A stretch of 24,000 nucleotides of DNA. Source: Candidatus Deferrimicrobium sp. Lineage in GTDB: Archaea > Asgardarchaeota > Lokiarchaeia > Helarchaeales > HEL-GB-A. Below are positions 1,851-22,609 of the stretch, piece after piece. The position numbers and the translations under genes were made by a program. The stretch covers positions 23,433-47,432 of the forward strand of contig DATKTP010000243.1 in assembly GCA_035531115.1 (NCBI GenBank), given 5' to 3'. The stretch's first letter is position 1; every line of letters starts with the position of its first letter. The notes under the pieces were generated by a model. The model did no database searches and was not told where the DNA came from. It was given only the letters and a program-made list of their open reading frames with translations.

Positions 1851-3626
1851 ATGCCAAACGGAATAATTATGGTACGATGGGACGACAAACTTGGAGTTGT
1901 TATTGAGGGTATTTATCCAAAAACTCTGAAAATCTCCGAGGACCATGTTATGCGTATTTTCACAACGCATGCAATGGGGGGTGGTGAGTCTGGCTTTTTA
2001 TCGATGAGTATAGAGAATTTAAACATCGCCTCATACTATACCGGCCTCCCAGAGGAAGGGAAAAGTCAATATTATGTGGCATTAATGTTAAGGGATGATG
2101 AGAATTCTGATATTTTTGAAGAACCGCTTATTGAAACTTCACCTTTACTAATTTTACATGTTAAGGACAAGAACTTCGATCAATTTTTTAAAAAACAATT
2201 TGAAGATATCATAAAATTAACTGAAATGACGGAAGAACAAAGATATGCAATGATTCATCGTGATCGAAGAAGAATACTTATCTTACTGAAATTAGGGTTG
2301 GGCGCCATTCCTAAGGACAATTTAAGGAAGTGGGTATCAGATCAGATAGGGGAAGAGGTTTTAGATATCGATGCAATTTTATCCCCTCTTACTAAGACTG
2401 AAATGATTAAGGAACTCTCTGTTGAAACAATGGATGGCTCCAGAAAAAAATGTATTTTTTTAATCAAAGACGTCTTTTCAATGCGGAGTCCCGTTGAGAA
2501 ATTTTATAAAATGGCAAAAGATGGAAAAGCACCTTCAGATATGAAACAAGTGTTGGAGATTTATAAAGAAAATGTGGATCAATTTTTTAAAGATTATAAA
2601 TTTGGAGATGCAGATTCCAAGCAAATTGCTGAAATTGCTTCAGATCCAAGTCAATATAATTTAATAACAATACTACGAAACAATTATATCGAAGTTAATC
2701 AATTGCCAGACATATTTGAGAAAAGTATCGAGCAAATAAACGAATATATCAATGATTTAAAACGTTATAATATTATTGATGAAATTAAGGATAAAAGAGG
2801 CAATACTTGGATATTCTTAAGAACTGATATTATATTTCCAACTTTCTTTCCTGAATATATTGTAGATTCAATTCGACGAAGATGGATGGAAAAGGATATC
2901 ACACAGAATTTGGCATTGAGCCATTTAGAATTATTAAAATCAGTATATCGTGGGGAAGAAGAAGAATTTATTGAAGGATTTGAAGGACCAAGGGTTCAAG
3001 TTGAAGAAGAAATCTCTTTATCTAAGGCACCAACAAAACTCCCAAAGGTTAGTGCACCAGGTGCGCCAGTTGTAGCAGCGCCTACCAAAACCTTATCAGA
3101 CGAAGAAATATTTCAATTTGTAGAACAAGTCTCCTATTTAAGAAAAGAGGCTAAAATGGACCTAGATAATAAAGATAGGGAATCCGCATATAACAAATTA
3201 CAAGAAGCTATTAGTATTACAAATACTTTGATAGCGGCTGGTGCCGTAGGACAAGAAAAAAGATTAGAGAAATTAATACAAGTTGCAGACAGTGTGAAGA
3301 AACTATTGGAGAAAGAAACAGGGAAAAAGTTCAAAGAAACGCCTATTACCCCTACGCCAGCAACTCCTAGGTTTCCAACGATGCCAAGTATGAGTGAACC
3401 TGTAGCAACTCTTTCATCGGTTGATCAGCAGAAGTTTTTACGTGAAGATCGTGATAATGCAATTGCTAGTGCAGATTCAGCGCTTACAGGAGGGGAATTT
3501 AATGATGCTGTACGGTACCTTGAAAAAGCCGCAGAATTATCAGAAAAAATGGGAGAAGCGGATAAGGCAAGAGATATCACGAAGATGGCTAATGATATTA
3601 AAAAGAAATTGGAAAAGTTACAATAA
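1851..3626 (+). CDS. Uncharacterised multidomain protein: N-terminal longin/roadblock-like alpha-beta module, two winged-helix-like modules, Pro-rich linkers, two C-terminal MIT/TPR-like helical modules
   Basis: A long uninterrupted 591-aa ORF with an ATG start. Domain calls come from residue-pattern reading only: the beta-beta-alpha-beta-beta-beta pattern in aa 5-110, RRRILILLKLG...IFLIKDV and YNLITILRNN...GNTWIFLRTD winged-helix-like segments, and C-terminal helices resembling the Vps4 MIT domain. Confidence 0.7.
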   Translation: MPNGIIMVRWDDKLGVVIEGIYPKTLKISEDHVMRIFTTHAMGGGESGFLSMSIENLNIASYYTGLPEEGKSQYYVALMLRDDENSDIFEEPLIETSPLLILHVKDKNFDQFFKKQFEDIIKLTEMTEEQRYAMIHRDRRRILILLKLGLGAIPKDNLRKWVSDQIGEEVLDIDAILSPLTKTEMIKELSVETMDGSRKKCIFLIKDVFSMRSPVEKFYKMAKDGKAPSDMKQVLEIYKENVDQFFKDYKFGDADSKQIAEIASDPSQYNLITILRNNYIEVNQLPDIFEKSIEQINEYINDLKRYNIIDEIKDKRGNTWIFLRTDIIFPTFFPEYIVDSIRRRWMEKDITQNLALSHLELLKSVYRGEEEEFIEGFEGPRVQVEEEISLSKAPTKLPKVSAPGAPVVAAPTKTLSDEEIFQFVEQVSYLRKEAKMDLDNKDRESAYNKLQEAISITNTLIAAGAVGQEKRLEKLIQVADSVKKLLEKETGKKFKETPITPTPATPRFPTMPSMSEPVATLSSVDQQKFLREDRDNAIASADSALTGGEFNDAVRYLEKAAELSEKMGEADKARDITKMANDIKKKLEKLQ

Positions 3627-3698: not shown

Positions 3699-4229
3699 AT
3701 GAGACAGAATTTTATGCCGCATGAAAATACGCCAGATAGTAAATTAACTTCATTCGAAAAGGGGATTAAAAAGCGACTTAGTAAAGAAAGGCAGTTAATT
3801 GAATGGATAATCGGTGAATATATAATAGGTGTAAATTCAAAATGGCACAGTGATAATTTTCCAAGTACTCAACTTACCAAAGTTGTACTTAACATTACTG
3901 GAAGAAGCCGTAGAGATTTTTCTTCGACACACCGTTTAATACGTGAGATTTTAAAAGAATGGGAGGATAATGGAGTTTGTGAATATATAACAACCACTAA
4001 ATATGCGCATTGTAGAAAGACAAAGATGATTTATCATTTTCCAATGAATGGCTTAAAGAAAATAAAAGAAATGATTATTGATCACCATATTGAATTCATT
4101 AAAAATTGGAATCAATGGGAACGCTATGTAAATAATGAAGATGTTATGAAAACGCGCGAAAATATCATTAAGTTACTTCTCTTTGAGTATAATAATAAAA
4201 TTCGTTTAAGAATTTTGAGTTATTCCTGA
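3699..4229 (+). CDS. Hypothetical protein (possible winged-helix fold)
   Basis: 176-aa ORF with no competing ORF. The segment STQLTKVVLNITGRSRRDFSSTHRLIREILKEWEDNGVCEYI looks like a helix-turn-helix plus wing. No family was recognised. Confidence 0.5.
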   Translation: MRQNFMPHENTPDSKLTSFEKGIKKRLSKERQLIEWIIGEYIIGVNSKWHSDNFPSTQLTKVVLNITGRSRRDFSSTHRLIREILKEWEDNGVCEYITTTKYAHCRKTKMIYHFPMNGLKKIKEMIIDHHIEFIKNWNQWERYVNNEDVMKTRENIIKLLLFEYNNKIRLRILSYS

Positions 4230-4338: not shown

Positions 4339-4482
4339 TTGAGATTAGTAACGGTACATCTTCCGCAAAGTTATATTGAAGGATTAGAAGAGCTGGTTAA
4401 AGATAGTGTTTATCCGAATCGAAGTGAGGCAATTCGTGTCGCTGTGCGAGATATGTTGAAAGCAGAGCTGTGGAAAAAATAA
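4339..4482 (+). CDS. Ribbon-helix-helix (CopG/Arc/MetJ-type) small DNA-binding protein, 47 aa, absent from the ORF track
   Basis: My own translation gives (M)RLVTVHLPQSYIEGLEELVKDSVYPNRSEAIRVAVRDMLKAELWKK*. It shows the classic RHH pattern: an N-terminal beta-strand VTVHLP, then two helices with YPNRSEAIRVAVRDML. It has a TTG start with GTGAGGT just upstream (4329-4335). Confidence 0.65.
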   Translation: MRLVTVHLPQSYIEGLEELVKDSVYPNRSEAIRVAVRDMLKAELWKK

Positions 4483-5103: not shown

Positions 5104-6324
5104 TTACTTTTTAGATTTTGTTAAAAACTTCCGATAACTATTATTATATAGGACTTCAGCTTCTGAATCGTTTAATTTATTCGATAGTTTCGCTGCCCTT
5201 TTATATAATTGAGCGGCTGCAAGATACATACCTTCAGCAGCACGACTTCGTGCTTCCTTAAGAACCATGGCACGTTCGTCTTCGAGATTTTGTTTTTCAA
5301 TTTCGTATGAAGGAGTTTTTGGTATTGCATAACGGGTATAATAGATAAGAACAATTATTCCGATTATTGCAATTAAACTTATTATAAGAATGAAAATAAT
5401 GGATAAATTTGGAATTTCGATAGTTAATGTCCAGTGAATTAGATTTAGCCAGAGACGTAAATTATCAACACTATCAATCCAGTGGACGCCCGTATAATCA
5501 TAACTCCCTGTATCTGTAACATTCAGATCACTAAACATGACAGTTGAACCGCACAACACAATTCGAGCTGAACCTTGTTGAATAGCAAATAACCAGGGAG
5601 TTGAATAAATTATTGATTCATTATATTCTAAATAAGAATTGGAATATCCCGTTGAAATTATACCGCTTTCCTGTGTGACATTTAATCCAGAGGTAAATGT
5701 CAAAATATTTTTTAGTTTATACTTAATTGGATGGAATAATTTAAAATTGGTTTTCGCAATTTCAACTACCTCGCGCTTTCCAATGGGAGTATGGTCAGTT
5801 CCATTATGGTGTAAATCATACTGAGTGAATAATGCAGGAATACTCAGTGCTTGAGTAATATTGTTTAAATAATCAGCATGACCTGTTATATTTTCATCAG
5901 GTACGGGGACACTCACATCATTATAGTTACAAAGAAGGATCAAATTTCCCCCAAGTTCTGTATAATTTTTAAGTAAATCTATTTCAGTTATCGAAAAATT
6001 GCCGTCAGGTCCAGGATTCCCGATAATAATAAGGTCGTAATACAACATTTTTGTTAAATTTTCAAATTCCGCCTTATTTAAATAGACTTTACAATCATTC
6101 GTTTGATTAAGGTACGATAATGCGGTTTTAAAACGAGTATTTGAGTAGGTATAATATTGATCATGTGCCTCATCAAAAAGAATTGAAAAAGGACTTGAAG
6201 AAGAAGTGGCTTTCACATTTGCTAAAAAGAACTGGGTACAAAATAAAGTTATCAAAGTAATGACCATAAGGCTTAAAGCCGCTTTTTTGTAATACGAATT
6301 TAGTTTCAAGATCCAGAACCTCAA
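5104..6324 (-). CDS. Type-I membrane protein with an extracytoplasmic DUF4350-like (GATase1-like) domain, many N-glycosylation sequons and a helical cytosolic tail
   Basis: It has an N-terminal hydrophobic signal or anchor (AALSLMVITLITLFCTQFFLANVKA). ILFDEAHDQ...DLIIIGNPG...GGNLILLCN...ARIVLCGSTVMFSD...DNLRLWLNLIHW matches the DUF4350 pattern. A C-terminal TM (LSIIFILIISLIAIIGIIVLIYY) is followed by a tail of about 75 aa. The TTG start is uncertain. Confidence 0.7.
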   Translation of the reverse strand: MRFWILKLNSYYKKAALSLMVITLITLFCTQFFLANVKATSSSSPFSILFDEAHDQYYTYSNTRFKTALSYLNQTNDCKVYLNKAEFENLTKMLYYDLIIIGNPGPDGNFSITEIDLLKNYTELGGNLILLCNYNDVSVPVPDENITGHADYLNNITQALSIPALFTQYDLHHNGTDHTPIGKREVVEIAKTNFKLFHPIKYKLKNILTFTSGLNVTQESGIISTGYSNSYLEYNESIIYSTPWLFAIQQGSARIVLCGSTVMFSDLNVTDTGSYDYTGVHWIDSVDNLRLWLNLIHWTLTIEIPNLSIIFILIISLIAIIGIIVLIYYTRYAIPKTPSYEIEKQNLEDERAMVLKEARSRAAEGMYLAAAQLYKRAAKLSNKLNDSEAEVLYNNSYRKFLTKSKK

Positions 6325-11495: not shown

Positions 11496-12125
11496 TTAGT
11501 CAGGTTCTGTTAATTTTCGTAATTCCTCGAGGTCCTTTCGCGCTTTCTCTTTTCGAGAAATAGGCTCTGCGGGCTCTTCTGCAGGAATATCTGGTAGAGG
11601 GCCTTCTCCTAAGATTAATTCTGCTTCAAATCGGGAGAGTTCCTGATTAGCTTCAAGGTCTGAATCAAGTTCGTCTGTACTTGACATTTCAGCATAAATT
11701 TCGCCTACTTGGTCGATTTCTGCCATAGCAGCATCAGCTTCAGCGGCAACTTGCTCTGCTTTTTCGATGTTAATGTCTTTTTGTATAGTTTTCATTTCCT
11801 GCAGACCTATTTTAACCGCATTATCAACGCCTTTGATATCTTCCGCCTGATCAATGACAATAATCATATTTTCCAAACGTGAAGCATAATTTACGTAACG
11901 TTCAGCATATTTATTTAATCTGGACCATTTAACTAGTGCTTGTTTCGACGCTCGCTTGTTTCCACTCTTATAATATTGTTTCGCTTTATAATAATCCATT
12001 TGGGCTCGTTTTTTAAAGGCTCGCTCTCGTAACTCGATTTTATTAATCATTTGTCTCAATTGAGTGATAGTACTTTCCTTATCTTTTTTACCTCGTCCAG
12101 GTAATAACTTTTTCATGAAAGACAA
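11496..12125 (-). CDS. ESCRT-III subunit, Vps20/32/60 (Snf7/CHMP4-7)-like
   Basis: 209 aa. By eye it aligns to Snf7/CHMP4: NKRASKQALVKWSRLNKYAERYV...LENMIIVIDQAEDIKGVDNAVKIGLQEMKTIQKDINIEKAEQVAAEADAAMAEIDQV versus NKRAALQALKRKKRYEKQL...LE..NTNTEVLKNMGYAAKAMK...MDIDKVDELMQDI. It has an acidic C-terminal half and terminal Pro-rich and LxxLRKL motifs. Confidence 0.85.
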   Translation of the reverse strand: MSFMKKLLPGRGKKDKESTITQLRQMINKIELRERAFKKRAQMDYYKAKQYYKSGNKRASKQALVKWSRLNKYAERYVNYASRLENMIIVIDQAEDIKGVDNAVKIGLQEMKTIQKDINIEKAEQVAAEADAAMAEIDQVGEIYAEMSSTDELDSDLEANQELSRFEAELILGEGPLPDIPAEEPAEPISRKEKARKDLEELRKLTEPD

Positions 12126-12200: not shown

Positions 12201-14924
12201 TCATTTTAATTGAGTAGTAAGTGAATTAAAAAGGGCTTCAATTTGTTGTATATCGGGTTGTTTTGGGGTAGTAACAACGAAAACAATGAGGGATTGAGTT
12301 GATTCAATTATTTTTGCGATCGAAAAAGCGATTTTAAATCCTTCTTTTGAAATGAGAAATACTGGTAAATCAGTATCAGAAATTATTTTGTCAATAACCC
12401 ATCCTTTTTGAAGAAGTGCATCTTGGATATGAGTTATTATAAGGGATGGAGTTTCGGAAAGAGTTTTGATGAAAATTTTTTCATGCAAATTAGAAGACCC
12501 GACGGGATAAAGATGTTTTCGATATTTATAAAGAAGTAGGCGTTTCATATAATCTTCAAGTTGATTTTTAGGAAGATTAATTTCGAAAAAAGGAGTTTTA
12601 GATTCACTAAGATCTTGAACTTTCATATCATCTTGTAATGGTGATGATGGGGAACTTGGAGGCAGTGTAATAAAGGTGGTCTCATCGGAGGGCTTTTCAG
12701 GAGAGCTGGGTGTTAAACTAGAAAGGTCAGGTATTTCAGGAACATCAGGGCGTATAATAATTGGTCTATCCATTTGATCTATAATTTTCGGAAGGCTTTC
12801 TCTACCTGCATGTTGGCTGATCCGTGGACGGATGCGAGCAACAAAGATGCGATTTGTCGTGATTGATTCATCGGCAATCACGCATACCCCTACTGGAAGA
12901 CTACGGAAAAAGGCAGCATCGTTTACTTCATGGGGGACATTACCAGGGGCACGATGAACAAAAGAATCTATATCTGAGGAGTACGTGAGAAAATGGCAAA
13001 AAGATTTGTCTAATTGGGAAAGAATTTGTACATTGGTTGCACTCGGTTGTTGAGTACAAAGAACTAATCCGCACCCTGGTTTTCGGCCTAATTTTGCATA
13101 TTGGACAAGGGGTTCTGATGCCGCTGTATTTCCACGTGCTGGTGCGAGAAGATGGGCTTCATCAATGAGAATCCAAGTTATTGGAATACTCTCAATTGCT
13201 TCACCCTCATCGATAGAAATTTTAGCAGCTTCAACTTGGCGGGATATTTGAAGCCGAGCACGAAGCACTTTTCGTGCGAGAATTCCAGTAATTAATGCAT
13301 GAAGATTTTGGTCGAGCACGCTCACATCTACAATTGATATTTGATTGGGTCTTGACAATTCAATAAGGGGTGTTCCTTCATCTGAAAAAATACCCCATTC
13401 TTTGGCAATTTCAAATCGCGAGACCATAGCCCTTCGGGTTTGACGTGTAAAGCCCTTATCCTTGTCGGTAACAAATGTAGAGGTGTTCATACAACGAATT
13501 ATATCTTCGAGAGAATACTTATCCCCTTTTCCTTTCACTTTTACTATAGAATCTTTCAATTCGGCTTGAAATCCTTCCTGAACTAATTTAATCGTTTTTT
13601 CAATAAGGATACCACGTGGACTAAACCGACTGACATCGAAAACATAACACCAATCATCAACACTTAACTCTGAGGGTCTAATGGAGAAGGATTCATCTTT
13701 TGTTTCCTTAGGTGTTAAATTAAAGTGCCCTAAGGGAACAAATACTTTTACATTTTCTTGAAAAGATTTTGGTTCTAGATTCCATTTTTCTAGAATTTTA
13801 CGTTCTTTTTCCTCCCAATTTGCGTATTTCATACTCCAATAAACGCCAAGGGGATCCAGGATAATAACTCCAATACCTATCTGCGCCGTAGCTAGTTCTT
13901 CGGCAATAACACCCATCGTATAACTTTTACCACTTCCACGATGCCCCGATATAAAAATTACATGAGGTTGAGTACAATCAAGTAAGAGTGTTCGACCATA
14001 GTGCCCTAATCCGTGAGCAGGGCGTTCCGAAATTTTCCCAATGTTAAGAGTCCCCTTCAAGCCAATTTTCCGATGCAACCCTTCAGAACGCCCAATTACA
14101 ACAGCTCCGGTCTCATTATCAACCAATAATTTTAAATGTTCTTTAATATGGGGGGTAAAGGTATTGAAAATTTCCTCATCCCAGATTTTCGTCTCTCCGA
14201 GAACATAAGCTAACGCCAGATGAATGGTTTCAAAATCTGAGACTTCATTCTCAAGAAGTAGATCAACTTTAGCCTTGCAAAATCGACGAAATTCCGGCGT
14301 ATTGGGATATTGATCCGGTTGAAAGTCCGAGACTTCCCAAATATAGTAATCGAGGCTATCACCTTTCGAGAGGTTTTCTTTCGGTATAATCAGTTCATAA
14401 GCTTGAGTGAGGATTGCTTCATCTCGGGTTATAAGATAACAAATGGTCAAGCACTTTATCTTTTCAATGCCCGTAACGTTATTTAAATTTTCTAAAAGCT
14501 GTATCCTATATTTTTCTTCTTTGGTCTTCTCCAATGCTTGATAGAGAATAATTGAACTGCCAGGACTGGGGGATTCCTCTTCATATACATGATTAAAGAG
14601 GACATCTGGAATTCTTTTTAGAAAGGGAAATTCTTCAATTCGTAAGGTGGCAATCATAGCATGTTGAAGCTTATTCGCCGAGATCGGATCCTCTCGTAAT
14701 AATTTAATAAGCCAATCTTCAATATCCACATCAGGTAAAATCTCCTTGATTAATTTTAAAATGGTATCTCTCAAATTCTGCAGATGCTGAATATCACTCA
14801 CTAAATTATATTGTAATATATAAATATCCAATAATAGAATTTGTTCTTTTAGTGATTTGGGAACAAGATCCCGAACTTTATTAAAAACTTTGATGATATC
14901 GTTATGTTCTATCACATAATTCAC
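12201..14924 (-). CDS. HerA/FtsK-superfamily (DUF87-type) P-loop ATPase with a unique N-terminal helical domain (about 270 aa) and a C-terminal linker plus alpha/beta domain (about 180 aa)
   Basis: Walker A is HVIFISGHRGSGKSYTMGVIAEEL (nt 13923-13946). Walker B is ITWILIDEAHLLAP (nt 13152-13175). GCGLVLCTQQPSATN, SRFSPRG and RIRPRISQHAGRE are typical of HerA-like DUF87 ATPases. No TM segments were seen. Confidence 0.8.
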   Translation of the reverse strand: MNYVIEHNDIIKVFNKVRDLVPKSLKEQILLLDIYILQYNLVSDIQHLQNLRDTILKLIKEILPDVDIEDWLIKLLREDPISANKLQHAMIATLRIEEFPFLKRIPDVLFNHVYEEESPSPGSSIILYQALEKTKEEKYRIQLLENLNNVTGIEKIKCLTICYLITRDEAILTQAYELIIPKENLSKGDSLDYYIWEVSDFQPDQYPNTPEFRRFCKAKVDLLLENEVSDFETIHLALAYVLGETKIWDEEIFNTFTPHIKEHLKLLVDNETGAVVIGRSEGLHRKIGLKGTLNIGKISERPAHGLGHYGRTLLLDCTQPHVIFISGHRGSGKSYTMGVIAEELATAQIGIGVIILDPLGVYWSMKYANWEEKERKILEKWNLEPKSFQENVKVFVPLGHFNLTPKETKDESFSIRPSELSVDDWCYVFDVSRFSPRGILIEKTIKLVQEGFQAELKDSIVKVKGKGDKYSLEDIIRCMNTSTFVTDKDKGFTRQTRRAMVSRFEIAKEWGIFSDEGTPLIELSRPNQISIVDVSVLDQNLHALITGILARKVLRARLQISRQVEAAKISIDEGEAIESIPITWILIDEAHLLAPARGNTAASEPLVQYAKLGRKPGCGLVLCTQQPSATNVQILSQLDKSFCHFLTYSSDIDSFVHRAPGNVPHEVNDAAFFRSLPVGVCVIADESITTNRIFVARIRPRISQHAGRESLPKIIDQMDRPIIIRPDVPEIPDLSSLTPSSPEKPSDETTFITLPPSSPSSPLQDDMKVQDLSESKTPFFEINLPKNQLEDYMKRLLLYKYRKHLYPVGSSNLHEKIFIKTLSETPSLIITHIQDALLQKGWVIDKIISDTDLPVFLISKEGFKIAFSIAKIIESTQSLIVFVVTTPKQPDIQQIEALFNSLTTQLK

Positions 14925-19105: not shown

Positions 19106-19351
19106 ATGACTAATAAAATCTCTAATCGGTTTATTATCACTTCCGAAATAATAATCGGGGAGTGGGATTGGAATAGACTAGAGCGCTGTATAGTCTGTAA
19201 TCTCCCCATTACGCAAGAGCAGAAATTAGGTAGATGCCCTGATTGTGGTCATTCCGCACATCTTGAACATTTATTAGAATGGATCAAAATTAAGGGTGTG
19301 TGTCCTTATTGTAAAGGAAAAATAACTGCGGAAAAAATAATTATAAATTAA
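19106..19351 (+). CDS. Small RING-type zinc-finger protein (candidate E3 ubiquitin ligase)
   Basis: 81 aa. The ligand spacing is C28-x2-C31-x15-C47-x-H49-x2-H52-x2-H55-x10-C66-x2-C69. This matches the RING cross-brace spacing with His at ligand positions 4-6. It lies directly upstream of the ubiquitin, E2 and E1 genes. Confidence 0.7.
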   Translation: MTNKISNRFIITSEIIIGEWDWNRLERCIVCNLPITQEQKLGRCPDCGHSAHLEHLLEWIKIKGVCPYCKGKITAEKIIIN

Positions 19352-19590: not shown

Positions 19591-19827
19591 ATGATTCTAA
19601 AAATCGTGTCTGCAATTGGGGGGGATGTGATCGAACTCAATACACCCCCAACTACAACAATTTCTGAGATTAAAAGGGAAATTAGCCGAAGAAAACGAAT
19701 TCCAGAAGGAATTTTTGTTCTCGCTTTCAGGGGTACTGAAATAAGAAATGAAAATCTATCTTTGTTAGATATAGGGGCTTCTGACTACGACAAGATTTAT
19801 TTAATCACCCGAACGGAAGGTGGGTAA
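19591..19827 (+). CDS. Ubiquitin-like beta-grasp protein ending in Gly-Gly-stop
   Basis: 78 aa. TISEIKREISRRKRIP aligns to ubiquitin TIENVKAKIQDKEGIP, and VLAFRGTEI aligns to RLIFAGKQL. The C-terminus ...LITRTEGG is followed directly by TAA. A GGAGG Shine-Dalgarno sits at 19576-19580. Confidence 0.85.
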   Translation: MILKIVSAIGGDVIELNTPPTTTISEIKREISRRKRIPEGIFVLAFRGTEIRNENLSLLDIGASDYDKIYLITRTEGG

Positions 19828-21778: not shown

Positions 21779-22609
21779 ATGTATGAAAAACATAAAATAC
21801 CTTATTTTGTACAAAAGAAGATGGAAGAGGGCGGTCCATCGAAAGAAATTTTCCGAGGCAGAATCCTCTTTGATCAATCACGGGAAAAGGATAAATGGCT
21901 TAATGAACATCATTCAGAATTTTTACTATTATTAACGAGTAATGGGTATTCCATCAGTAAAATAACGGAAGGTCCAATTAATTATGCCAATATGAAAGAT
22001 TTTGATATTCTCGTTTTATCCGCAATCCGAACCGGTTCTATGGATTTCAATGCAGTTGAAATTCGATCTATTGCGCAATTTGTGAGTGATGGGCGGGGAT
22101 TATTTCTAATTGGTAATGAATATATTGGGAAAGAGAAGAATTTCAACTATCTATTCAATCAATTATTTGGAATTTCTTTTAGTGATCAAGTATTAGATAA
22201 AGAAAATAATGCAAATCCGGCAGCAGGATGGAGCCATAGCCCGATTATTAGTATTTTTGTCGATCATAAAATAACTAAACAACTTGAAGAAATTGTTCTT
22301 CGAGATGGCTCTGGGTTAAATTTAACAAAATCTTCAGAACCTCTTGCTTTCTCTGCTCCAACAGCAGAACCTGCCTGCGTGCCTGTCATTGGAGCGACAG
22401 AATATGGAAAAGGAAAAGTAATTGCAATTGGCGGGGACGGTATTTTTACAAATGACCCTAGAATCGGTATTAATGCCCGGGATAATGAGCAATTCATTTT
22501 AAACGCATTGGATTGGATGCCATCTTGGACGGATTGTCCACAATGTGGAAGTGGAGTGCCGCCTGCTGAATCACTATGTCCTCGTTGTAAAACACGCGTT
22601 CTACGGTAA
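21779..22609 (+). CDS. Cytosolic DUF4350-like (GATase1-like fold) protein with a C-terminal zinc ribbon
   Basis: ILFDQSREKD...FDILVLSAIRTG...FVSDGRGLFLIGNEY...GKVIAIGGDGIFTND...DNEQFILNALDWM parallels the ectodomain of the 5104-6324 protein. The C-terminal CPQCG-x9-CPRCK motif (nt 22535-22606) is a zinc ribbon. No signal peptide or TM was seen. It lies 46 nt downstream of the E1 gene on the same strand. Confidence 0.65.
   Translation: MYEKHKIPYFVQKKMEEGGPSKEIFRGRILFDQSREKDKWLNEHHSEFLLLLTSNGYSISKITEGPINYANMKDFDILVLSAIRTGSMDFNAVEIRSIAQFVSDGRGLFLIGNEYIGKEKNFNYLFNQLFGISFSDQVLDKENNANPAAGWSHSPIISIFVDHKITKQLEEIVLRDGSGLNLTKSSEPLAFSAPTAEPACVPVIGATEYGKGKVIAIGGDGIFTNDPRIGINARDNEQFILNALDWMPSWTDCPQCGSGVPPAESLCPRCKTRVLR

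Follow-up and report, generated by a model that had tools for sequence, protein, structure and literature searches.

The 24,000-nucleotide stretch of contig DATKTP010000243.1 (Helarchaeales) considered here, referred to below at its full length as the window, contains at 1851-3626 of the forward strand a gene for a 591-residue protein. Its 360-residue N-terminal core is modelled with the domain layout of NPRL2 and NPRL3, that is, a longin domain followed by two winged-helix (wH) units, and its C-terminal tail carries two further helical modules. We give about even odds to a role for this protein as the non-catalytic longin platform or adaptor of an Arf-like GTPase, acting near the membrane together with a small wH protein, with the tail recruiting ligands.

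The window is AT-rich (GC ~0.32-0.37) and has an Asgard-type gene set with ribosomal L10/P0 and P1 and the PolD large subunit; it also encodes two Snf7 proteins, a Vps4 with an MIT domain, a UEV-Vps23 fusion, and RING, E2 and E1 proteins. The open reading frame (ORF) was reported in a first-pass annotation made from the sequence alone; it is indeed present, and every peptide quoted there is found in its translation. A word-indexed search yielded 50 homologues (named Helarchaeota, hereafter Hel; Lokiarchaeota/Promethearchaeota, Loki and Prometh; Hodarchaeota, Hod; and Odinarchaeum, Odin), and an exhaustive profile search yielded 576 representative clusters at E ≤ 1e-3, 141 of them at E ≤ 1e-30; hence the ORF is a real gene. 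The start codon is supported by the N-terminal MPxG, which is kept in the homologues.

The core (aa 1-366) and the tail (aa 361-591) were modelled with AlphaFold2 (AF2), from an alignment of 16 sequences and from 15 Hel and Loki tails, respectively. Together with Foldseek structure comparison and conservation, the models, with their local confidence (predicted local distance difference test, pLDDT), define the following features.

1851..3626, forward strand: target gene, ATG to TAA, 591 aa; NPRL2/3-like core plus tail
1851..2225, forward strand: longin domain, aa 1-125; topology β1-β2-α1-β3-β4-β5-α2-α3 (AF2), Foldseek, conservation
2232..2600, forward strand: winged-helix unit 1, aa 128-213, with a helical connector, aa 216-248 (unit to 250); AF2
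2607..2948, forward strand: winged-helix unit 2, aa 253-328, with two conserved C-terminal helices (336-365); AF2, profile matches, invariant columns
2949..3098, forward strand: linker 1, acidic and Pro-rich, aa 367-416; pLDDT <50 (model disorder aa 361-408), poorly conserved
3099..3335, forward strand: three-helix module 1, TPR/MIT-like, aa 417-495; AF2, pLDDT >90, Foldseek
3336..3416, forward strand: linker 2, Pro-rich, aa 496-522; pLDDT ~50 (disorder aa 496-520), 7 Pro in 27 residues
3417..3623, forward strand: three-helix module 2, TPR/MIT-like, aa 523-591; AF2, pLDDT >90, TPR_2 and consensus-TPR matches

The core model is confident (pLDDT 90.9, predicted TM-score 0.87). Its first 125 residues form strands 4-11 and 15-22, helix 30-42, strands 48-54, 57-63 and 73-80, and helices 86-103 and 109-125, which is the order of a longin and not of a roadblock domain; of the two folds offered in the first-pass annotation, the longin thus stands, also by Foldseek, and the roadblock does not. 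Both predicted wH units are present in the model, each as helix-helix-helix-helix-hairpin, and the five-part parsing of the protein (1-120; 130-210; 265-330; two helical modules of ~70 aa) agrees with the AF2 models to within ~10 residues. The C-terminal helices of the core hold an invariant motif, F333-P334-x-Y336 with D339/I341/R342/W345 (FFPEY...D-IRRRW).

When the core was compared with the PDB by Foldseek, there were four matches at E ≤ 1e-3, all to chain C of GATOR1 (7t3b, 9o5d, 9o5a, 8fw5; 359-449 columns), which we take to be NPRL3 given the chain lengths and the composition of the complexes. The best full-length matches are NPRL3 (7t3b_C, 9o5d_C, 8fw5_C) and NPRL2 (9o5d_D, 9v0j_A, 7t3a_B), with E ~7e-4 and prob 0.97-0.99; the full-length alignments to these two proteins span 330-449 columns with prob 0.85-0.99. 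Chains B/D/H/A of the same assemblies rank next, with the yeast SEA chains Npr2 (8adl_S) and SEAC 9h4q_T; the chain identities were checked for 7t3a and 8fw5_B (NPRL2) and for 8adl_S (yeast Npr2). The longin domain alone matched NPRL2, DENND10, FLCN/FNIP2, Lst4 and a Lokiarchaeal longin with prob 0.93-1.0, the values being 0.99-1.0 for 7t3a_B (NPRL2, 133 columns), 8p0v_M (DENND10), 8yqg (the Loki longin) and 4zy8 (Lst4). VPS22 of ESCRT-II (ESCRT, endosomal sorting complex required for transport), the architecture initially suggested for the core, appears only at rank 22 (2zme_A, E 0.02), behind NPRL3 and NPRL2. These two proteins consist of an N-terminal longin domain and two or more repeated ααααββ winged helix-turn-helix (wHTH) domains (Levine et al., PMC3747258), and hence the combination of longin and tandem wHTH, at first assigned to no described family, is the published layout of NPRL2/NPRL3 in GATOR1/SEACIT.

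Motif conservation was counted in 78 diverse full-length members of the core family. The hallmark of the longin domain is R9-W10-D11-x3-G15, complemented by P23, H40 and S61-Y-Y-T-G65. Tryptophan occupies position 10 in 65/78 members and aspartate position 11 in 59/78; G15 is kept in 72/78, P23 in 74/78, H40 in 66/78, S61 in 68/78 and G65 in 60/78. The spacing of W10-D11...G15 equals that of W33-D34...G38-P39 in C9orf72. No conserved arginine was observed across the 78 members in the β4-β5 loop (aa 64-72), where sequence alignment places the finger R78 of NPRL2 (within KKYSRNALL). As the W-D-x3-G motif is situated at the β1-β2 loop and the arginine finger is lacking, the target is most likely a non-catalytic longin subunit of the NPRL3/C9orf72 type. 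In longin complexes with GTPase-activating protein (GAP) activity the β1-β2 loop faces the GTPase, and, going by the longin topology, the conserved residues would gather at a single pole, which in the GAP longins is turned towards the GTPase.

Named members of the family all come from Asgard archaea and represent at least nine classes. The first 62% of the target is common to all homologues, and the Odin and Hod versions are stand-alone proteins of ~361 aa; judged from sequence, this 360-residue core is a family of its own, carrying no curated Pfam or NCBIfam annotation. Pfam gave nothing at E ≤ 0.01 for the whole target or its pieces, the pieces showing only faint HTH_69 and TPR_2 matches; the NCBIfam scan of the target was empty, phmmer against the PDB found nothing, and hmmsearch found only weak wHTH and TPR matches. 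No longin-type Pfam family matched target residues 1-130 even at E ≤ 10, nor the 16 core members scanned. The first-pass annotation had also considered a lineage-specific orphan devoid of conserved association; what we see is a family spread over many Asgard classes with conserved partners.

Nine representative proteins (588-2548 aa) carry the core at the C-terminus of giant surface proteins. Their layout includes an N-terminal signal anchor (in full-length sequences), an ectodomain, a single transmembrane (TM) segment, a conserved K/R-rich juxtamembrane stretch of ~100 aa and the core; the ectodomains of the scanned fusions have weak to moderate Pfam matches to Laminin-G, CarboxypepD_reg and MG-type domains. 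In two Helarchaeota proteins of ~1020-1046 aa (P0108, P0119) the core is joined to SIR2_2 and an extended TPR array, which recalls signalling or defence effectors of the NTPase-less kind. The giants with the core fused (up to 2548 aa) are P0057, P0062, P0063, P0066, P0067, P0068, P0072, P0078 and P0134. All core-fused or core-adjoining giants have one TM segment, those scanned have domains of the Laminin-G/Ig/MG/CarboxypepD_reg types, and repeated LP(P)E(D/E)R..L motifs are found in the tails of the core-linked giants.

The neighbours of the core gene were tabulated by tblastn in a total of 37 loci. In the window, the conserved partner is the following gene.

3699..4229, forward strand: small wH partner, 176 aa, isoelectric point (pI) 9.6, 72 nt downstream of the target; wH by sequence pattern only

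Homologues of this partner adjoin the core gene in Odin, Hod, Hel and Atabeyarchaeia (Atabey) and lie ~3 kb from it in Loki (~20/37 loci in all); in L009, a close Hel relative, the two genes overlap. With a pI of 9.6-10.2 the partners are basic; the core, at pI 5.2 (4.5-5.9 in the Odin/Hod orthologues), is acidic. Between the partner gene and a methyltransferase gene the window encodes a 47-aa ribbon-helix-helix protein (4339-4482, forward strand), with RHH_1 orthologues of 47-48 aa in L008 and L009.

In Odin and in Hod/Prometh-labelled metagenome-assembled genomes (MAGs), the core gene belongs to an operon with the order ~415-aa protein, ~255-aa protein, JAB/MPN protein, core, small wH. In Odin the core-partner pair is followed by a giant of 1552 aa with one TM segment (L001 11595-16253). 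The operon is found in L001 (6975-9667), L006 (7105-9924), L020, L023 and L025; a divergent SAM synthetase lies alongside, and the ~415- and ~255-aa proteins are unannotated. Homologues of the 415-aa, 255-aa and JAB genes were not found in the window by tblastn. In Atabey (L024/L027) the JAB slot is held by a longin-only paralogue of 148-160 aa that reads WDDATGP and has TGMAVRGRPQ ("RGR") in the β4-β5 loop, and Loki and Hel have, close to the core gene, paralogues of 237 aa made of a longin and a coiled coil. Three Jord-type loci, one from a MAG labelled Thermoproteota, encode an N-terminally extended (~120 aa) Arf-like GTPase (Pfam Arf, 7.8e-25) 36 nt downstream of the core. In Baldr the genes for a GTPase, the core and a 2026-aa giant (L033 5167-11247) overlap in this order, and in Loki locus L003 a homologous GTPase is located two genes from the core. 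The 1552-aa and 2026-aa neighbours have domains of the same kinds as the core-fused giants, and one TM segment each. Since fusion and adjacency point the same way, the core presumably works at the cytoplasmic face of the membrane beside giant surface proteins. The 458-aa Arf-like GTPase of Loki (L003 13147-14523) has at its end a zinc-finger segment that shares 44% identity with the 81-aa RING protein of the window (19106-19351), suggesting a GTPase-RING connection to the ubiquitin cluster.

The proposed mechanism would be as follows. The protein would be a cytoplasmic scaffold with a 360-aa core in the NPRL2/NPRL3 layout, this core forming the non-catalytic, NPRL3/C9orf72-like half of a longin-longin platform that binds or regulates an Arf-like small GTPase. 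It would probably act with the product of the next gene downstream, the small basic wH protein, and in other Asgard lineages a longin paralogue could supply the loop arginines. By fusion or adjacency, the core would dock at the cytoplasmic end of giant single-pass surface proteins, while the two putative peptide-binding TPR/MIT-like modules of the Hel, Loki and Prometh tails, on their Pro-rich tethers, would presumably recruit further partners.

Several observations weigh against this proposal. A GP motif at the β1-β2 loop has been reported as specific to the GAP longins FLCN, NPRL2, SMCR8 and C9orf72 (PMC12290439); the target reads G15-V16, not G-P, and has no loop arginine, and in the family position 16 is proline in 16/78 members, alanine in 18/78 and valine in 13/78. 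The Foldseek E-values of the core are modest (~1e-3) and the global TM-scores low (0.2-0.26), the latter because domain orientations differ. Sequence comparisons were null both for the core alignment against human NPRL2 (hhalign, profile-sequence; Prob 0.13%) and for the 78-sequence core profile against a 13-sequence NPRL2 alignment (profile-profile; Prob 0.15%); the NPRL2 profile is shallow and its sensitivity limited, as the search for NPRL2 homologues gave vertebrate sequences only among the matches listed. Neither the target nor the scanned core members matched Pfam NPR2 (PF06218) or NPR3. Thus, with no sequence or profile backing for homology, the resemblance to NPRL2/3 could be convergent domain shuffling. 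The second wH unit also bears a weak resemblance, in its sequence, to DNA-binding ArsR/MarR domains. Finally, no GTPase, longin paralogue or giant is encoded in the 24-kb window, and GTPase adjacency is confined to divergent members (27-32% identity to the target) and to Loki, and is not observed in Hel.

A more ambitious version of the proposal, which we think rather unlikely, is that the core, a longin paralogue with GP and arginine, the small basic wH protein and the N-extended Arf-like GTPase constitute an Asgard-wide longin complex of the GAP or guanine nucleotide exchange factor (GEF) type. It would be docked on, or fused to, the cytoplasmic tails of the giants in a pathway from surface receptor or adhesin to GTPase, and would be a sister or precursor of the eukaryotic NPRL2/3, C9orf72/SMCR8 and FLCN/FNIP complexes. 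If true, this would be a prokaryotic pathway linking surface receptors or adhesins to a small GTPase.

The tail bears on a different explanation. Its two modules, predicted by the first-pass annotation as MIT-like units of ~70 aa, are three-helix bundles in the AF2 model, with the helices of module 1 at tail residues 57-79, 83-102 and 108-135 and a TPR-like GGEFNDAVRYLEKAAELS motif in module 2; the Pro-rich linkers, likewise predicted, are disordered, and the whole protein has 26 prolines. Foldseek found no match of the tail at E ≤ 1e-3, and among the weaker matches it scored MIT and TPR structures alike: on the one side, the calpain-7 tandem MIT:IST1 (8uc6, prob 0.99-1.0; E 0.06-0.1), the VPS4B MIT (2cpt, E 0.27) and the Atg1 tandem MIT (tMIT; 4p1n); on the other, CTPR, KLC, MamA and SGT at E 0.05-0.3, with CTPR, KLC and MamA at 0.05-0.1. 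The MIT profile (PF04212) did not match the target tail and was missing from the 25 Pfam families found most often in the 15 tails, and the tail profile compared with the MIT domain of the window's own Vps4 gave a null result (hhalign, Prob 1.8%). TPR_2 matched the target at E 0.0085 (16.6 bits, under the 27-bit cut-off; about one hairpin per module), and among the 15 tails scanned with Pfam the orthologous Hel tails matched TPR families at E 7.5e-8 to 1.3e-8. Thus, "MIT-like" is compatible with the fold of the tail, yet indistinguishable from TPR-like. The tail was seen only in the Hel, Loki and Prometh members examined; as the Odin and Hod members have none, it is not part of the conserved function.

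If the modules were MIT domains, the protein could be an ESCRT accessory, its wH units acting as in ESCRT-II and its tail binding MIT-interacting motifs of Snf7/ESCRT-III, thereby coupling the longin platform to ESCRT. The three-helix bundles, the MIT structures among the tail matches, the presence of VPS22 in the core list and the Snf7/Vps4/UEV cluster nearby all agree with this. The distance of under 8 kb to the ESCRT cluster given in the first-pass annotation is accurate, as the first Snf7 gene (11496-12125) starts 7.9 kb downstream of the target, with seven unrelated genes between. However, a Snf7 gene within 10 kb of the core was observed in only 4/37 loci (the window, L008, L010, L014), all from Helarchaeales and forming one long synteny block; it was absent in Hel loci L009, L007 and L012 and in all other classes, and L009 has a WD40 gene and a gene for a 1518-aa protein at the ESCRT position. 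The conserved neighbours are the small wH protein, longin paralogues, JAB proteins, Arf-like GTPases and giants. A conserved ESCRT linkage was therefore rejected after the tabulation. Moreover, Pfam EAP30, Vps25 and MIT did not match the target at any threshold, and EAP30 and Vps25 did not match its small wH partner in Pfam. With TPR proteins fitting the tail equally well, NPRL2/3 outranking ESCRT-II for the core, and Odin and Hod members having no tail, a role in ESCRT appears quite improbable.

Two observations concern the genes mentioned above. Between the two Snf7 genes the window encodes a 907-aa HerA/DUF87-type ATPase (12201-14924, reverse strand); a HerA-like ATPase inside an Asgard ESCRT cluster is unusual, and the Snf7-DUF87 order is also found in Hel L008. 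A TPR-like hairpin (AAEGMYLAAAQLYKRAAKLSNKL) resembling module 2 of the target tail is present in the short cytoplasmic tail of a 406-aa membrane protein (5104-6324, reverse strand), which has a signal anchor, an IFT52-GIFT-like ectodomain and a TM segment at aa 309-327, and whose gene is kept beside PolD in Hel and Loki loci (L003, L008, L009).

The wH units also permit the protein to be viewed as a one-component transcription regulator, in which a longin/GAF-like sensor would control DNA binding by the wHTH, as in CodY, and the small wH protein could be a co-regulator. A profile search against the PDB matched positions 237-343 to wHTH structures of the MarR/ArsR type (AdcR, E 0.002), among the 16 members scanned Pfam found TrmB (1.6e-5) and HTH_20 (5e-4), and NCBIfam has a weak ArsR/SmtB match at aa 135-163 of the Odin orthologue. 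CodY (GAF plus wHTH) is among the Foldseek matches of the core (prob 0.35-0.72), helix-hairpin-helix motifs replace the longin in some members (P0172, HHH_5 2e-9), the first wH unit is mildly basic (pI 8.9) and the partner has a pI of 9.6-10.2. We nevertheless give this explanation a slim chance: the core itself is acidic; many members have it attached C-terminally to giant TM proteins, or fused to SIR2 and TPR; its neighbourhoods consist of GTPases, JAB and surface proteins and not of a regulated operon; and structurally it is matched best by NPRL2/3, whose wH units bind protein. A ribosome-associated or translation factor co-inherited with the stalk operon (L11-L1-L10-P1), acting for instance at the P-stalk as the platform of a translational GTPase, is highly improbable. 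The target does lie directly beside the L10/P1 genes, as does the core gene in 10 other loci from Hel, Loki and Prometh. Against this explanation, the core adjoins the stalk L10/L1 genes in these three lineages only, the orientation is divergent in Prometh (L002, L018, L022), and Odin, Hod, Atabey, Jord, Baldr and several Hel loci do not have the linkage. The 310-nt spacer contains T-runs and TATA-like boxes, which speaks for separate transcription, and the distribution is consistent with synteny passed down within Lokiarchaeia.

A 14-nt exact direct repeat, AGAGATGTGATTTT, lies in the target's purine-rich 5' leader at 1762-1775 and 1835-1848 of the forward strand, with 0.03 expected by chance; the second copy stops 2 nt ahead of the ATG, and the repeat is absent from the 37 related loci. 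Further downstream, between the RING and E2 genes, there is a 78-aa ORF ending in ...TRTEGG (19591-19827, forward strand), probably the ubiquitin-like modifier of the E1/E2/RING cluster. After the E1 gene, a 276-aa protein (21779-22609, forward strand) has weak matches to DUF4350, ABC_transp_aux and OST48_N and a C-terminal double zinc ribbon; if, as we assume, these three families are GIFT-like, it would be the second GIFT-like protein in the window.

At the lysosomes of eukaryotes, Rag and Arf GTPases are under the control of longin-domain GAP complexes, namely GATOR1, FLCN-FNIP and C9orf72-SMCR8. Asgard "NPRL2-like" proteins have so far been recognised mainly by their longin domain, and the core family shows the full NPRL2/3 layout. 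Its longin has the WD…G motif spaced as in C9orf72, and the family reaches across at least nine Asgard classes. Through its genomic links to Arf-like GTPases, longin paralogues and giants, specific partners become testable, so the family offers candidates for biochemistry in cultured Lokiarchaeia and bears on membrane GTPase regulation predating eukaryotes. The attractive ESCRT interpretation is at the same time corrected as unsupported.

Among the closest known systems are the "NPRL2-like longin" proteins reported in Asgard archaea by Liu et al. (bioRxiv 10.1101/2020.10.19.343400) and the Asgard FLCN/SMCR8-type longins (PMC12290439), which have been likened to GAP longins, some of them having GP and Arg motifs. 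Since NPRL2-like longin proteins have been reported, the kind is already known, and the core family may fall within the broad asCOG classes of those longins. In the searchable literature (asCOG supplements aside) we found no description of the tandem-wH core family, the small wH partner, the JAB operon, the giant-protein fusions or the tail. ESCRT-II (Vps22/Vps25/Vps36) shares with the core the use of tandem winged helices as a protein scaffold but has a GLUE or helical N-terminus in place of the longin. Tandem MIT proteins (calpain-7, Atg1 tMIT, Vta1) and TPR proteins resemble the tail in having two tandem three-helix bundles of ~70-80 aa; as differences, the target has a long disordered linker between the modules and no MIT profile match, and the orthologous tails match TPR models.

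C9orf72, the non-catalytic longin subunit of the C9orf72-SMCR8-WDR41 Arf GAP, has the same W-D-x3-G(-P) at the β1-β2 loop and no arginine finger (PMC12290439), and the core family is also associated with Arf-like GTPases. C9orf72 continues, however, into a DENN module and not into winged helices; no C9orf72 chain is among the 50 Foldseek matches listed for the core, and the motif is the sole similarity.

The comparison with NPRL2 and NPRL3 reveals differences as well. The target lacks both the NPRL2 Arg78-type finger and the proline of the GP motif and adds the C-terminal TPR/MIT-like modules; no DEPDC5/Iml1-like gene was recognised in the core neighbourhoods, where Arf is the top-scoring family for the adjoining GTPases and Gtr1_RagA a weaker one; and the core is accompanied by the conserved small wH protein and linked to giant surface proteins. 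On the other hand, the domain order is the same, an N-terminal longin followed by tandem winged helices; the sizes are similar (360 aa for the core, 380 aa for NPRL2); both have a glycine-containing motif (xxLG) at the β1-β2 loop; the NPRL2-NPRL3 heterodimer is echoed by the paralogous longin genes near the core gene in some genomes; and in some lineages small GTPase genes adjoin the core gene.

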